A stretch of 63,780 nucleotides of DNA, the filler included, from Reclinomonas americana ATCC 50394 (taxonomy: Eukaryota): the NCBI GenBank assembly GCA_048213135.1. It is 17 parts of 17 records of this genome, joined end to end, with 100 filler letters (N's around TTAATTAATTAA, not from the genome) between each part and the next. Parts side by side here need not be neighbours in the genome. Positions count along the whole stretch, not along the records: positions 8,973 to 15,978 come from AFZH01021909.1; positions 16,079 to 18,242 come from AFZH01021910.1; positions 18,343 to 19,830 come from AFZH01021911.1; positions 19,931 to 21,717 come from AFZH01021912.1; positions 21,818 to 22,939 come from AFZH01021913.1; positions 23,040 to 26,876 come from AFZH01021914.1; positions 26,977 to 38,076 come from AFZH01021915.1; positions 38,177 to 41,680 come from AFZH01021916.1; 9 more parts are not named here. One strand, written 5' to 3'. Position 1 is the stretch's first letter. The number at the start of each line of letters is the position of its first letter. The notes below the pieces were generated by a model, which did not search any database, was not told where the DNA came from, and worked only from the letters and a program-made list of their open reading frames with translations. Below, one piece after another: positions 8,973 through 63,085 of the stretch. A program made the translations under genes and the position numbers.

Positions 8973-11693
8973 GGTGCAGCGAGTGAGCTTTGGGGAGAGG
9001 CTGGTGAGTAAGGGAGGGGGTGGTGGAAAGAGAGTGCTCGCTCTTCTTTGCTTACATGCAGTGCGGCTGCGTTCTGGCTCTTTTCTCTCTGGTTTTCTTG
9101 TTGTCTCTTCTTGTCTCTCCTTGTCTGTCTTCTCCTTCTCTTATTCCCTCCCTTCCTTCCTGCCTTGTCCCGTCCGTTCTTGCATTCTCTTCTCCTTCGT
9201 CTTCCCTCATTTCCTCCCATCTTGTCCCTCACTCTCTCGTGCACTTCTCACCTTCCTTGTCTCGTCATCCTCCTTGTCTCGTCCCTTCTCCTCTACTCTT
9301 GGATATTTCTTCCAACCATCCCCGTTCCTTCTCCTCTCATTTCCTTGTCGTCTTTGTTCCTCGCTCTCTCGTGACCCTCTTTCCGCTTACTTATCTCGGT
9401 GTCGTCCTTTTTCATGTTGTCTTGTTTCTTCCAGACTGTGTCCCTTCTCCTTTCCCCTCGTTTCGTCTCTCGTTGCCCTCTTTTTCTAGTTCCTCCTTGC
9501 TTGAATCCCTTCTCTTTTTCGTCTCCTACTTCCCTTCGTCTCTCTCTCTCGATGCCCTTCTGTTCTTGTTCCTCTTCTTGTTTGCTCCCGTGGTGTCTTG
9601 TCATTCCTTGTTCCTTCTGCCTTTCCTCTCCACTTTCCTGTTTCTTTTCCTTCCCGTTGCTCTTCACCCTTCTCCAATCCTCTGCAATTCTCGCTTCTTC
9701 CGCATCTCATATCCCTTCTTGTCCTTTCCGCCGTCCTTCCTCCCCTCCGCGTCTCATACTTTCCGTCTTTGTTCAACACCCCTTCATCGCCCTTCTCTCC
9801 TTCTCCGTTCCTTTCCCCCTCCTTCTCCTTTCCCTTTTCCTCCTTCCTTCTAACCCCTTTTCCCTTTCTACAGAACCTCTACGGTGAGCTCACGGCCATC
9901 CCCTTCTCCAACGGCGAGAGCATCGGAAGCGCGATGTGGGCCCTCACCTCGGCCTACCAAAAGCACGTGTACGTCGGCGATCTGGCCCTGCTGCCGAGTC
10001 GCCATCCACAACCGCTGGAGATGCTGGCCCTGCACGATGCCGACGCTGTCATCTTTGGCGACGTGACCACCGAGCGTGTGCCTTCGCAGTCGGCGACGCA
10101 GACGCCACTGACGGTCTCGTACGACAACGCGGTCGAGCAGTTTCTGTTGCGTCTCTTTGCTATCTACCTTCGTTTCCATCTCCCCTTTCTTTCCCTCACT
10201 GGCCTTCTCACCACCCCCGCAGCAAGCACCTGTCGAGCGCCCTCAGTGCCGGCTCCCACGTGCTGGTACCCGTGCACTCGTCGGGAGTGGTGCTCGACCT
10301 GTTGGAGGCCACCTGCCAGCACATTCAGAATCTCAACCTGCGCACGCCCGTGTTCTTTCTGTCGCCGAGTGCCACCAAATGCGTGGCGTACACGGACATT
10401 TGCGCGGAGTGGCTGGCACCGACGCGGACCGCGCGTACCTACGAGCCCATGTTGCCGTTTTCGTTTGCCGAGTTGCAGAATGTTGCGTCTGCACGCAAAC
10501 ACTCTTTGTCAGCTTTCTGTTGTATTGTCGCCTTCTCATCGCACCACAGTCGGGTCAACTCATCACGGACACGGGTCTCACACCGTCGTTCCTCAACCGC
10601 TGGTCGCTGTACGAGCGCTCGGTGGTGTTCGCCTGCCACCCGTCGTTGACCAGCGGACCCGCGGCCAGCTTTCTCGATGCGTGGATCGTGCAAAATCCGA
10701 GCAGTGTGCGCGTACCGTTGGTGATTCACGTGGAGCCGTGGGCATCGCCGTCGTATGTGTCGGCCGCACTGGCCGATGGCAAGGTGGTGCGGCGCGGCGG
10801 CTGCGATCATTTGTTCCTGCCGGTGGTGACGAGGGCGCACAGCGGCCAGGTGGCGCGCCTGTTGCACAAGGCTGGCGCTCGCGCGGCGTGGGTGCCGCAG
10901 AGAAATGCCACGAGCGTGGCAGACTCGCTGAGCGGCACGGTTGGCGGCCCCACTGGTTTGTCGATGCACAACGTCCACTGTCAGTGGCGGACTCACAGAA
11001 CATCTCCTTTTGTGTCGCACAGGCCACGGATGCACGGTGCACTCGTATGTGCCACAGACGCCATTCACCACATCGTCGACGGCGTTGCCGCGGCGTGTGG
11101 CCGTCTCCGCGGAGCTGGCCTCCCAACTCAAGCTGCAGCCGGTTGGTGGCAGCGGACAGAGCTCGACTGGTTCGACGGCAGCCGCCCCTGTCGACGCATC
11201 GCTCGTGATGCGCGACGGTGATTGGCTGGTCGACAGCGGCGAACGCAGCGCCACGGCGTTGCAGCTCGCGGTGCCGTTGAGCGAAGAGATTCTCCTGGGT
11301 GCCTTTCATCGGCGTGGCTTGCCCGACGCCGTGGTTGTCGAATCGGCGGCGCCCGCCGGTGCACACGACGGCGATGCAAGAGGCTCCAGCAGCAGCAGCA
11401 ACGGCGGTGGCCTCGCTCTGCTCGTTCGCGTGCCATCGCTGTCGTCGACCGTGTTGATTCATGGCGGTGGCTCGTTGGTGGAGATCGAGACGGAGGGTTC
11501 TGCCGCGCCGCACGCGCTCATGGTGGACATTGTGAGTGACGCGCAGCGGGTGGCGGTCAATGCACAGTTGCTGAGCACGCAGTCGGCCGGTTTGCTCGTG
11601 GCCGCTGCTGTGGCCGCTTCTGCTGCCGCCACCGCCGGCTCCTCGGCTGGTGCGGCGGTGACCGCCGTCGAGAGAATGGAAGTGGAGTCATGA
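8973..11693 (+). CDS. INTS9: Integrator complex subunit 9 (inactive MBL/beta-CASP), 5' part in gap. Exons <8973-9003, 9874-10145, 10223-10481, 10550-10955, 11023-11693
   Basis: Spliced translation gives GESIGSAMW, RHPQP, GSHVLVPVHSSGVVLDLLE, FLSPSA..AEWL, VVFACHPSL, all matching IntS9 family motifs. Confidence 0.88.
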
Positions 11694-11924
11694 CGATGTC
11701 AATGAAGGATGATTACAGGGAAGAAACTTATAGCAAGCTTTACGGTTGCTGCGACAAGAAGCAAGAGTGCGATGGGAGCACGGACAGACACCTGATCTTC
11801 GTGCACTTACGCCAACAGGGATCCTTCTCTACGAGAACAGATGGTGCATGGAGAGCGAGAACAAAAACAGAAAAGACAAAAATGGCAAAATTAGAAATGG
11901 AGAAGCACTTGTGGTGTCGCACGG

Positions 11925-61493: not shown

Positions 61494-61593
61494 NNNNNNN
61501 NNNNNNNNNNNNNNNNNNNNNNNNNNNNNNNNNNNNNTTAATTAATTAANNNNNNNNNNNNNNNNNNNNNNNNNNNNNNNNNNNNNNNNNNNN

Positions 61594-63085
61594 CGGTCTG
61601 CCGGAAGGGGAGAAGAGGGGAAGGGGTGGGTGGGGGAAGGGTGGGGAAAGGGAAAGGGAAAGAGAAAAAGCAAAACTGAGCTGGCATGCGACATGAAAGA
61701 AAACGAGTTAAGAGCGAGCGAGCGAAAAGAGAATGAGAGAGAGCGAGAGAATGAGAGAGAGAGGAAGAGGAATGGAATGCGTTGCTGGCAGCGGCAACAA
61801 GACAAATGAGAAGAATAAGAGGAAGGAGACATCAACCACAGCGCACGAAAGTCATCTTTCTAACAAATACAAGGACAAGAGTGCTTCCGTGGAGCTTCTC
61901 ACTTCAGAGGCGGCAACGCAACATACGACATACTCGGGGAAGGAAACTGAACCGCCGTTGGCGTGGGTCCTGCGAAGAGAAAACGATGGGCACTCAAAAG
62001 AAAAGAGATCGACAAAACAAACGGCACGCAACAGTGCTTCCAGCGAGTGATAGCCGGCCGCTTCTGTCTTGCGCTCCGTGTGCTCTCTCATCCCTGTATC
62101 GCCGCGTCAACAAAGACAACACTCTTGCAATAACGCTGCTCACAGAAAAACGCAACATGTGGCCACCCGCTCCCGCTTTCCCAAAATCACACGGCACAGG
62201 AACACCTCACGCGGGCACTCCAAACAGTTCTTTCGGCGATGCTCACTGCATTGCTCGTGAGCACCGCGCGAATACATGTCGGATTTGGTGACGTTCTTGC
62301 CGAAATAGACGCCAGCGCCCCCTGCAACCAAGACTATGAGAAAGAGCGAGTGCGTGAAGAATGATAGGCAGGGACGCAACACATGTTGCCCTTGTCTCGT
62401 GAGTAGCGCTCGTCGAAACCATTGAGCAGCACGAGGTTCGGCTGCCGTGAGCCGTGCCATAGGAGCTCCGATACACGCTCGTCAAACACGTCTTCGCAGT
62501 CGAGCTCCTTGGCCACCTCCTGGGCGCGCATGTACCACCATCGCCACATGCGGGGGTCCTGCAGTATGGTGAGGGAGGGGTGAGGGGAAGGGAGAAGTGG
62601 AGAGAGGCGGAGAGGAAGGCGACCCCTTCAAAGTCAAACCATCCCCTCTCCTTTCCCTCACACTCAGTATTCCCTCACTGTCGCTCCCACTCTCTTCCCC
62701 ATCCCTTTCCCTTCCCTCCTCTTCCCCACTTGCCGCACCTGGAAGCGAAACACGCTGACCACCTGCAGATCCGAGTACCCGCCTCCAGGGTTGTTGGGGT
62801 TGTTGCAGTGGTCTGGCGCGATTGAGTCGCGGAATAATCGGTGCACCATTTCGTACTCGTCGGTGAGCTCCTGCACCTGCACGAGAACGCCGCGCTGCAC
62901 GCTTCCACCACTGCCGCTGCCGGTGCCCTCTGCGCCACCGCCCATGAGGGGGATTGGTGCAGCGGGGGTTGGCTCCCTGGGTGAGCAGAGGGTGGATTGG
63001 TAAGAGGGAGGAGTTGCATGTGCATTTGCGAGCGTACCAGAATGGCGGATACACCAGGCCGACAGCCACTTCGGATTTCTGCAGT
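61594..63085 (-). CDS. PARP-family ADP-ribosyltransferase catalytic domain with H-Y-E triad; both ends uncertain
   Basis: YPPFWEP, EYEMV, LLWHGS, GFD, WGAGVYFG...KSDMY, VFLCRVILG, GYHS, PEYVV|YR. Confidence 0.85.

Follow-up and report, generated by a model that had tools for sequence, protein, structure and literature searches.

In animals and plants, 5' splice sites have been established to be of two kinds, exon-strong (AG//GU) and intron-strong (//GURAG), which occur in a split of about 1:1 and are linked by a see-saw around a G at the last exon base, position -1 (PMC11732430 and the available part of PMC11842720). At rare human sites, a register of U1 small nuclear RNA (snRNA) pairing that is shifted by one base (+1) has been established experimentally (available parts of PMC4856993 and PMC9311317, citing Roca and Krainer 2009), and a further register, in which a base at +2/+3 is bulged, was described by Roca et al. 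2012 and Tan et al. 2016, with 68 predicted human sites (available part of PMC4856993). Here we describe the introns in a 63,780-base stretch of DNA (the window) from Reclinomonas americana ATCC 50394 (assembly GCA_048213135.1). Their donors fall into two classes, class A with the consensus (A/C)G/GTG(C/A)GT(G) and class B with the consensus (C/A)(A/T)/GTTGCGT, where the slash outside brackets marks the cut, which is always immediately 5' of GT. The class of a donor is predicted by the last base of the exon before it.

The two classes have much in common with the AG//GU and //GURAG dichotomy: the ~1:1 split, compensation of a weak side by the other side, the occurrence of both classes within the same genes, and a strong dependence between -1G and a downstream G. 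As in that dichotomy, exon and intron strength are anti-correlated between the classes (class B carries 0.58 bits of information in the exon and 6.15 bits in the intron, class A 1.13 and 4.31 bits). In the known dichotomy, however, both classes have G at +5 in the same register, whereas class B has G at +6 and U at +3. Class A keeps -1G and +5G together, the exon end of class B is A or T rather than N, and neither class resembles GURAG, having C and not A at +4. The G at +5 that would be expected of a GURAG-like intron-strong class was not found in class B, which instead has C at +5 (91%) and G at +6. A first-pass annotation of this DNA had held that its pattern differs from the known dichotomy; the see-saw logic and the ~1:1 ratio turn out to be shared, and what is new is the one-base displacement of the intron-side motif. 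The system is the familiar exon/intron see-saw with its intron-side motif displaced by one base, and the displacement is the new element. Our literature search, with subscription journals and supplements outside its reach, found no published description of a GTTGCGT-type donor class, and the sole mention of a non-human shifted register that it found is a speculation about tunicates in the available part of PMC13326754. Relative to the literature found, the novelty is a displaced intron-strong class (U at +3, C at +5, G at +6) that follows one heptamer, serves about half of the introns and is tied to A or T at -1; we did not find such a class described.

Two donor classes and the last exon base

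Introns were predicted by a purpose-written dynamic-programming gene finder for spliced open reading frames (ORFs), which scored codon usage and required GT (or, at a penalty, GC)...AG. Its donor model was restricted to intron positions +3 to +8, and the -1 base was never used as a signal; its acceptor score covered positions -14 to -3 together with the presence of a branch motif, and all models were re-estimated from the program's own output. The final model has 104 introns (103 with GT donors and one with a GC donor), and intron length in the window has a median of about 66 nucleotides (nt). The branch motif is CT(C/G)A(C/T), its A lying at a median of 15-20 nt (range 3-28) upstream of a C/T-AG acceptor. 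The program made clear errors, merging neighboring genes via false long introns (for example 32425-31555, 29359-28616 and 51675-54082) and placing false exons in repeats. Because the final model still merges neighbors through false long introns, we used filtered sets. S2 (64 introns) is donor-blind and requires a length of at most 320, flanking exons of at least 30 nt on both sides, an acceptor-plus-branch score of at least 1.5 and a summed exon coding score of at least 10, which removed most of the false long introns; S3 (48 introns) is a stricter version of S2. Versions of the gene finder that lacked signal models were rejected, having fused genes and set borders wrongly. We also rejected motif-only counting of class A donors, which is unusable because GTGAGT and GTGTGT are abundant in microsatellites.

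By rule, donors of the form GTNNGT were assigned to class A and those of the form GTTRNG to class B, and the remainder were left unclassified. Two donor classes were also found unsupervised by two-component expectation-maximization (EM) on positions +3 to +8 from a random start, with weights of 0.51 and 0.49. The sharp component reads GT-TGCGT (column maxima 0.89, 0.72, 0.87, 0.78 and 0.65), the looser one GT-GCGTG (column maxima 0.62, 0.45, 0.94, 0.75 and 0.60).

The base before the cut separates the classes. Among all 104 introns, G is at -1 in 27 of 36 class A donors and 1 of 32 class B donors by rule (Fisher 4e-10; 35 unclassified GT donors and the GC donor are excluded). The corresponding counts are 24/27 and 1/22 in S2 (Fisher 1e-9; 15 unclassified) and 21/23 and 1/18 in S3 (Fisher 2e-8; 7 unclassified). 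With EM classes, which cover the 52 of the 64 S2 introns that have a donor score of at least 0.5, the 27 class A exons end in G (24), T (2) or C (1) and the 25 class B exons in A (12), T (10), C (2) or G (1), so that the -1 base predicts the donor class in 48/52. When the register is called from intron bases alone for the 103 GT donors, -1G is present in 33/53 donors in register 0 and in 5/50 in register +1. The association is specific to introns: for motifs lying wholly within predicted exons, G precedes GTNNGT in 50/176 cases and GTTRNG in 12/33 (p = 0.41). In an annotation-free count, GTTGCG followed 40-160 nt downstream by a branch motif and YAG was preceded by G in 3/38 cases, compared to 10/39 for GTTGCG lacking these downstream signals. 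Class B accounts for ~45-50% of introns, and for ~48% of classified introns (EM classes, S2). This genome has two genuine populations of spliceosomal GT-AG introns, about equally numerous and often adjacent to each other within one gene.

In class B, the last exon base is not simply any base other than G. It is A or T in 20/22 introns, whereas the composition of the codon positions would give 13.4 G+C (P = 6e-7), and it is A or T in 7/8 phase-0 introns despite a G+C content of 75% at third codon positions. G itself occurs at -1 once in 22 introns, although exon composition would lead one to expect 6.75 (binomial P = 0.003).

These results bear on several claims of the first-pass annotation. 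Its central one, that the last exon base predicts the donor class, is borne out by the 2x2 tables of -1 base against donor class, run on predicted introns (Fisher 4e-10 to 2e-8 over the three sets), and by the exon-internal control, where there is no such link. Its further claim that the exon end is freed from constraint is contradicted by the A/T preference at -1, and its share of shifted donors (38%) was too low. It had these donors following A, T or C, which holds for A and T in most cases, but C is depleted too in the filtered set. It had also held that even weak donors have -1G. Its example, G/GTCCTC at 32028 (32028-32094, +; ctg/GTCCTCTC), was indeed predicted, in an earlier version of the model, but just 4/15 of the unclassified S2 donors have -1G; several of these unclassified donors are probably false predictions. 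Of the two shifted donors that it placed after a G, the one at 21384 (G/GTTGCGTT) is verified by homology, as described below, while the one at 55274 (55274-55323, +; tcg/GTTGCGCG) is present but unverified: it lies in no gene model, and by our reading splicing to the nearest acceptor gives a frame that meets a stop at once.

Support for the exact cut sites

Fifteen class B or B-like junctions are supported to the nucleotide by evidence beyond the gene finder, namely homologs, Pfam or PDB coordinates, and ORF continuity. Part of the homolog evidence comes from a CPSF100 gene that is split in halves over two contigs (18343-19830 and 19931-21717). Compared to 12 full-length homologs, the CPSF100 model is contiguous at 6/7 junctions, the seventh (20486) falling in a variable acidic region where the alignment is not judgeable. 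The six, all on the + strand, are the class B introns 19161-19219 (act/GTTGCGTG), which is gap-free against the 12 homologs and across which the Pfam Lactamase_B_6 coordinates abut (~82 then 84), 20046-20107 (act/GTTGTGTA), 20961-21023 (cct/GTTGCGTG) and 21384-21451 (aag/GTTGCGTT); the B-like intron 20651-20747 (aca/GTTTCGTG), which is outside the strict class B rule; and the class A intron 19342-19394 (ccg/GTGCGTAC). The intron at 21384 is followed by a final exon that corresponds to the end of Pfam CPSF100_C; it is the one true exception in the verified set, a class B donor with -1G.

The Rrp8 gene (+) was modeled with exons at 53250-53468, 54083-54189, 54247-54346 and 54413-54546. Against 12 homologs it has no gap at any of its three junctions (3/3), and its end coincides with the conserved C-terminus of the family. 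The alignment verifies T/GTTGAG at 53469 (B-like, 53469-54082, 614 nt; aat/GTTGAGCA), A/GTTGCG at 54190 (class B, 54190-54246; gaa/GTTGCGTC) and G/GTGAGA at 54347 (conventional, 54347-54412; aag/GTGAGAGA).

Profile and structure coordinates support three further class B junctions. Pfam coordinates abut across the donor at 49750 of the cyclin gene (49685-49750, -; cgt/GTTGCGTT; Cyclin_N, 84 then 86) and across the one at 39386 of the COG3 gene (39386-39451, +; gca/GTTACGTG; COG3_C, ~106 then 108-109). In the PARP gene, the exons around 62380 (62322-62380, -; tgt/GTTGCGTC) map to positions 58-103 (extrapolated to 109) and 110-159 of tankyrase-2 chain 5zqo_A, and are contiguous to within one residue.

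Reading-frame continuity comes from a gene with ten introns at 29.3-31.56 kb (-), whose ATG-to-stop ORF of 492 amino acids is uninterrupted. Five of its introns are class B (after C, C, A, A and T) and five are class A, every one of them after G. The class B introns are 31339-31421 (aac/GTTGCGAA; outside S2 and S3), 31038-31108 (agc/GTTGCGTC), 30797-30862 (caa/GTTGCGGT), 30457-30529 (gca/GTTGCGCC) and 29718-29779 (act/GTTGCGCC), the 492-residue ORF being intact only with this cut in the last case. The class A introns are 31266-31323 (atg/GTGCGTGC; outside S2 and S3), 30607-30671 (cag/GTGCGTGC), 30313-30380 (tgg/GTGTGTGA), 30125-30198 (gcg/GTGAGTGC) and 29501-29581 (cag/GTTTGTGT). When the class B cuts are moved by +1 or -1 nt, the best ORF falls to 317 or 167 amino acids, respectively.

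Proposed pairing with U1 snRNA in two registers

The first-pass annotation had proposed that both classes keep one pattern in one register, with the cut falling either after or before its first G. This describes the data well: both classes fit the shared core G-(G/T)-T-G-N-G-T, cut after the first G in class A and before it in class B. To count base pairs we assumed the canonical U1 5' end, AUACUUACCUG (available parts of PMC9311317 and PMC4856993), which may not be the U1 of this organism, and all pairing results below carry that assumption. Class A donors form a mean of 8.0 pairs in the normal register and 4.6 in the +1 register, the normal register being better in 25/27. For class B the means are 4.4 in the normal register and 6.5 in +1, and the +1 register gives more pairs in 18/22 donors (3 are worse and 1 is a tie). 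In a shifted helix, A at class B -1 could pair with U10 of U1. Such a helix would also make position -1 of class B resemble position -2 of class A, and the two are indeed roughly alike: G occurs in 1/22 and 4/27 cases, respectively, which is no difference, and the overall base distributions are only weakly distinct (p = 0.04 in S2 and 0.08 for the full set of introns).

The best available reading, unproven and one to which we give slightly less than even credence, is that class B is read by U1 in the +1 shifted register. Both classes would then pair with a single U1 5' end over a core of seven bases, G-(G/U)-U-G-C-G-U, whose initial G would be supplied by the end of the exon in class A. For class B, the entire helix would lie one base deeper in the intron, so that +1G would pair with U1 C9 instead of -1G, and U at +2 would be mismatched opposite C8. 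It would not be U1 that sets the cleavage site but the GU dinucleotide, in the later step that involves U6/U5. A shifted helix with an internal mismatch and no exon-side G:C pair would need every other pair, which would explain why class B is near-invariant (GTTGCGT), and the weakness of this helix may explain why class B introns are pyrimidine-richer and have a branch site nearer to the acceptor.

The shifted register at human sites is one of the closest known parallels. There, all U1 pairs are displaced by one base, +1G replaces -1G and the cut stays at GU, and we propose the same for class B; cleavage at GU holds at the class B junctions that we checked by homologs, profiles and ORF continuity. 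The oligonucleotide that served to test the shifted register, ACA/GUCAAGUAUA (Table 2 in the available part of PMC4856993), has an exon ending in a base other than G, as class B does. The differences are of scale and strength: the shifted register is a rare exception in humans but would serve about half of the introns here with one heptamer, GTTGCGT, and the shifted helix of class B with canonical U1 would have two mismatches and a computed energy near zero.

Several observations weigh against this reading. Mean duplex energies calculated by RNAduplex are -1.5 kcal/mol for class B and -7.25 kcal/mol for class A, class B being weak in any register, and the +1G:C9 pair is present in the minimum-energy structure of just 4/22 class B donors. 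Class B has C at +5 in 91% of donors whereas the equivalent position of class A, +4, is C in 47-52% (p = 0.0002-0.005), and the C at +5 in class B lies opposite a mismatch with canonical U1. Donors of the GTTGAG type are nearly absent, yet GTGAGT makes up 5/27 class A donors. The G at +7 of class A (58-59%) has no counterpart at +8 of class B (18-25%, p = 0.007). T at -1 of class B (10/22) would form a U-U mismatch with U10 of U1 if the helix were shifted, and G, which could wobble there, is depleted. The classes differ beyond the donor as well. Interior G content is 0.159 in class B and 0.222 in class A (Mann-Whitney p = 0.005), and CTCAT is the branch motif in 9/22 class B introns and 1/26 class A introns (p = 0.003); only the type and position of the branch motif are informative here, because S2 selects for its presence. 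A pure register model does not predict these differences in composition and branch motif, and the shifted-helix proposal does not account for the C at +5 or for the A/T preference at -1. Finally, all of the introns considered here are predictions, with independent support for only the ~15 class B or B-like junctions described above.

The comparison of U1 duplexes in the 0 and +1 registers is divided, pair counts favoring +1 and duplex energies not. The same is true of the first-pass idea of compensation, in which +1G replaces -1G at U1 C9: the pair counts and the loss of -1G agree with it, but the duplex is weak and class B does not simply reproduce class A one base further in. The near-obligate C at +5 of class B (equivalent to +4 of class A) suggests that it faces something other than the usual pseudouridine in U1, or that the C is recognized by a different factor. 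Given a weak duplex with canonical U1 and an obligatory C on a mismatch, a non-canonical U1 base or a second reader is predicted. With somewhat greater reserve, then, we suggest that W/GUUGCGU might be a second fixed 5' splice-site code for about half of the introns, read either by shifted U1 or by a dedicated U1 variant, and that the U1 5' end would depart from the near-universal ACUUACC in having G opposite the obligatory C. Pairing between UGCG at the 5' end of the intron and CGCA at its 3' end was also considered and rejected; a CGCAG acceptor is present in only 2/22 class B introns, as judged by eye.

Alternative explanations

A class B donor could be a class A donor with an extra U, where U1, and U6 after it, would pair with +1G and +2U in the ordinary way, the U at +2 or +3 would bulge out and the helix would resume on GCGU. 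The +2/+3 bulge register is known in humans (available part of PMC4856993), and its sites resemble class B in having an extra U after GU and then the usual downstream consensus. This arrangement would keep the +1G:C8 and +2U:A7 pairs, one pair more than the shifted helix, and the extra base in class B is always T, as expected if either of two identical neighbors can bulge. In a bulged helix, however, -1 still faces U1 C9, so -1G is expected, and it was found in 1 of 22-25 class B introns against the 6.75 expected. The human register keeps the -1G:C9 pair and has only its 68 predicted sites (Table 3 in the available part of PMC4856993), whereas class B is without -1G in 21/22 introns and constitutes ~45-50% of introns. 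We consider a bulged U unlikely.

U12-type introns are a minor class, less than 1% of introns, with a donor and branch consensus of their own. By a logic like that of U11 for U12-type introns, class B could have its own recognizer matching GUUGCGU, whether a further variant of U1, a different small RNA or a protein, although we think this quite unlikely. Such a reader would suit the near-invariance of class B over seven bases, including a C that cannot pair with canonical U1, and its poor pairing with canonical U1 overall. It would also suit the differences between the classes in branch motif, in branch-to-acceptor distance (median 15 nt in class B and 20 nt in class A) and in composition, as separate machineries predict, and variant U1 genes do exist in humans (PMC3561869 and the available part of PMC10870369). 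On the other hand, GT-AG ends, the CTCAC branch motif and the length mode are common to both classes, and the two donor cores differ at one position, for which a single U1 is simpler. No Rfam family was found in the window at gathering thresholds, and hence no U1, U5 or U6. Class B and U12-type introns are alike in that each is a second class sharing its genes with the first, its extended donor rigid and its branch near the acceptor. Their signals differ, since the class B donor GTTGCGT and branch CTCAC/CTCAT do not match the U12-type consensus, and so does their abundance: class B is about half of introns, and shares CTCAC with class A.

Introner elements form families of introns that are related in sequence and bear terminal repeats or target-site duplications. 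Class B might be the legacy of a single burst of intron gain, in which an introner-like element or a copied intron would have brought along GTTGCGT, CTCAY and a body rich in C/T; the -1 bias would then reflect a preference for insertion after A or T rather than a splicing requirement. Like introners, class B introns are homogeneous, short and equipped with their own splice signals, and they are uniform in length (57-80 nt in S2, where class A ranges over 53-299 nt), composition and branch motif. The short class B introns have no similarity to each other beyond the signals: an all-against-all blastn-short search of the 104 introns recovered only those of the WD40 paralogs, one tandem repeat and low-complexity matches. 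Nor did the class B borders show any direct repeat or microhomology (0 bases on the left in 21/22). Unlike introners, then, class B has neither sequence families nor target-site duplications, in a window so small that only recent or abundant families are detectable, and we rejected a recent introner origin on these two grounds. If instead the burst was old enough for the intron bodies to be erased, selection must hold the seven donor bases and the synonymous A/T, which is a splicing requirement again. Origin by a burst is very unlikely in our estimation.

That the GTTGCG introns are artefacts of gene prediction and are not spliced is hardly credible, in spite of the clear errors among the predictions (merged genes and false repeat exons), because homologs, profiles and frame continuity confirm 15 class B or B-like junctions, and false positives would show the exon background of 36% G before GTTRNG and not 1/22.

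Other predicted introns

The remaining class B introns are predicted as follows, those marked "outside" lying beyond S2 and S3. On the contig that begins at 8973 are 10146-10222 (+; tct/GTTGCGTC; in S2 and S3), 10482-10549 (+; aat/GTTGCGTC), 12292-12371 of the EGF-repeat gene (-; cga/GTTGCGCA), 13070-13133 (-; tct/GTTGCGTC), the 310-nt intron 13373-13682 (-; tct/GTTGCGTT; outside) and 13850-13924 (-; cta/GTTGCGCA). Further along the window lie 22332-22398 (-; caa/GTTGCGCT), a 278-nt intron with a class B donor at 26517-26794 (+; aga/GTTGCGTG; outside), 27666-27730 (-; gaa/GTTGCGTT), 33236-33299 (-; cca/GTTGCGTT), 34495-34562 (-; ttt/GTTGCGTT), 47887-47959 (+; atc/GTTGCGTC; outside) and another with a class B donor at 57746-57862 (+; ttc/GTTGCGCG; outside). 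The class B intron 31767-31828 (+; act/GTTGCGCC) was present in earlier versions of the model and was lost from the final one because a chain on the minus strand ran over its gene.

Genes with verified class B junctions have additional introns of both classes. COG3 has a second class B intron at 39639-39700 (+; gca/GTTGTGTG), predicted and covered by the Pfam scan, and a class A intron at 40255-40325 (+; cag/GTTGGTGC). In the cyclin gene there are a class B intron at 49316-49376 (-; caa/GTTGCGTG; outside) and class A introns at 49135-49201 (-; tgg/GTGCGTGC), also covered by the Pfam scan, and 49548-49608 (-; gag/GTACGTCG). The PARP gene has class B introns at 61970-62032 (-; act/GTTGCGTG; outside) and 62094-62156 (-; cat/GTTGCGTT; outside). 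At 61916-61930 (-) of the same gene, the candidate donors GTATGT (61926) and GTTGCG (61922) are 4 nt apart and versions of the model disagree between them. Judging by PARP C-termini, GTTGCG at 61922 is presumably the better choice; the downstream exon is past the contig end.

Other class A introns, all predicted, are 10956-11022 (+; ctg/GTTTGTCG), 14422-14496 (-; cag/GTGCGTAC), 22582-22653 (-; tcg/GTGAGTAC), 32715-32775 (-; gag/GTGCGTGT), 33517-33578 (-; acg/GTGAGTGG), 34104-34178 (-; gcg/GTTCGTGT), 34872-34927 (-; tgg/GTGGGTCT), 36393-36460 (-; tcg/GTGTGTGT), 36520-36589 (-; gtg/GTGCGTTG), 36837-36900 (-; tcg/GTACGTGC), 47665-47778 (+; ggg/GTGCGTGC), 48258-48374 (+; gcg/GTGAGTGA), 58141-58197 (+; gag/GTGCGTGC) and 61341-61395 (-; gag/GTTTGTCA), together with two in the glucan synthase gene, 41876-41945 (+; ctg/GTGAGTTT) and 42740-42824 (+; aag/GTGTGTGT). 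Three predicted introns are exceptions to the rule of -1G: 33830-33894 (-; ctt/GTGCGTCG) and 35003-35089 (-; tat/GTGCGTGC) have -1T, and the doubtful 299-nt intron 14835-15133 (-; ctc/GTCCGTCC), which is class A by rule, has -1C.

Gene content of the window

The window consists of 17 contigs of 1.1-11.1 kb each, separated by spacers of the form N44-TTAATTAATTAA-N44 (at 4199-4298, 7333-7432, 8873-8972 and 13 more places). The contigs are chained artificially, so genes on either side of a linker are not necessarily neighbors in the genome. G+C content is 51-59% in 4-kb windows and 53-63% per contig. The genes are eukaryotic and rich in introns. By Pfam they include WD40 paralogs, an EGF/teneurin-like repeat protein, CPSF100, COG3, a COMM-domain protein, a GT48 glucan synthase, a cyclin, Rrp8, a USP7-like fragment and PARP; several other genes had no Pfam family assignment.

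The first three contigs (1-8872) carry near-identical WD40-repeat paralogs (Pfam WD40, E = 1e-67). Their introns are 225-245 nt long and mutually 84-91% identical, and all begin A/GTTGCAT, a B-like donor with A in place of G at +6. One of these is at 5308-5532 (+; tga/GTTGCATC), and its copies at 2524-2766 and 7523-7751 are not independent of it.

The ten-intron gene (29300-31560, -) packs its introns into 2.2 kb. By eye, the N-terminus of its product is hydrophobic and resembles a leader and its tail is acidic, and no Pfam family was found on the two exons that were scanned. An intron-free ORF of 611 codons with strong codon bias (G+C at third codon positions, GC3, of 0.81) is located at 44105-45937 (+); it has no Pfam family and zero matches in an index of 5.8 billion proteins. 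Two exon proteins likewise had zero matches in the 5.8-billion-protein index, even to the window's own proteins. An Rrp8 exon has distant relatives only (at most 64% identity), the named matches being from chytrids, Rozella, a dictyostelid, Cercozoa and coccidia. Comparison with the ESM Atlas pointed, and only weakly, to Haptophyta. A metagenome scan for the locus in a sister species, using a 114-amino-acid exon as query, returned two loci with 38-41% identity over ~45 residues; one metagenome locus is an intron-free WD40 gene in a bacterial-looking context, a chance pattern match.

Upstream of the Rrp8 methyltransferase exon, the region 51628-53249 (+) is C/T-rich, contains a 226-nt tandem repeat (52462-52936, 2.1 copies) and was wrongly split into exons and introns by the gene finder; it may be a long intron, an untranslated region or a promoter. 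The 614-nt intron of Rrp8 (53469-54082), unlike the other introns, is not C/T-rich, and is filled with copies of a ~53-nt unit (Tandem Repeats Finder, 53940-54044, 2 copies, 87% matches) in which an inverted repeat can be seen by eye. Two predicted long introns of ~800 nt each, 9071-9873 (+) and 58575-59373 (+), are 75-84% pyrimidine on the sense strand. The strand bias in intron composition is strong enough that the coding strand can be named by eye. Long, imperfect (GA)n and (CT)n tracts occur at 55499-55697 and 56530-56641, and there are (CA)n runs elsewhere (such as 31777-31815).

Implications

For annotation, close to half of this lineage's introns would be overlooked or wrongly placed by a gene finder that relies on a single donor matrix, and our own first models, which had no class-aware signals, did indeed miss or misplace introns. 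A requirement for A or T at the last exon base, even at synonymous third positions, is a constraint that splicing places on coding sequence, and we found no description of one of this kind. If class B is read in the shifted register, a register known as a rare exception at human sites would be the routine way of reading the start of an intron in one protist. Evolution would then not have fixed the register in which U1 meets the 5' splice site, and one genome could run two registers in parallel, a point of relevance to the transfer of the cleavage site from U1 to U6/U5.

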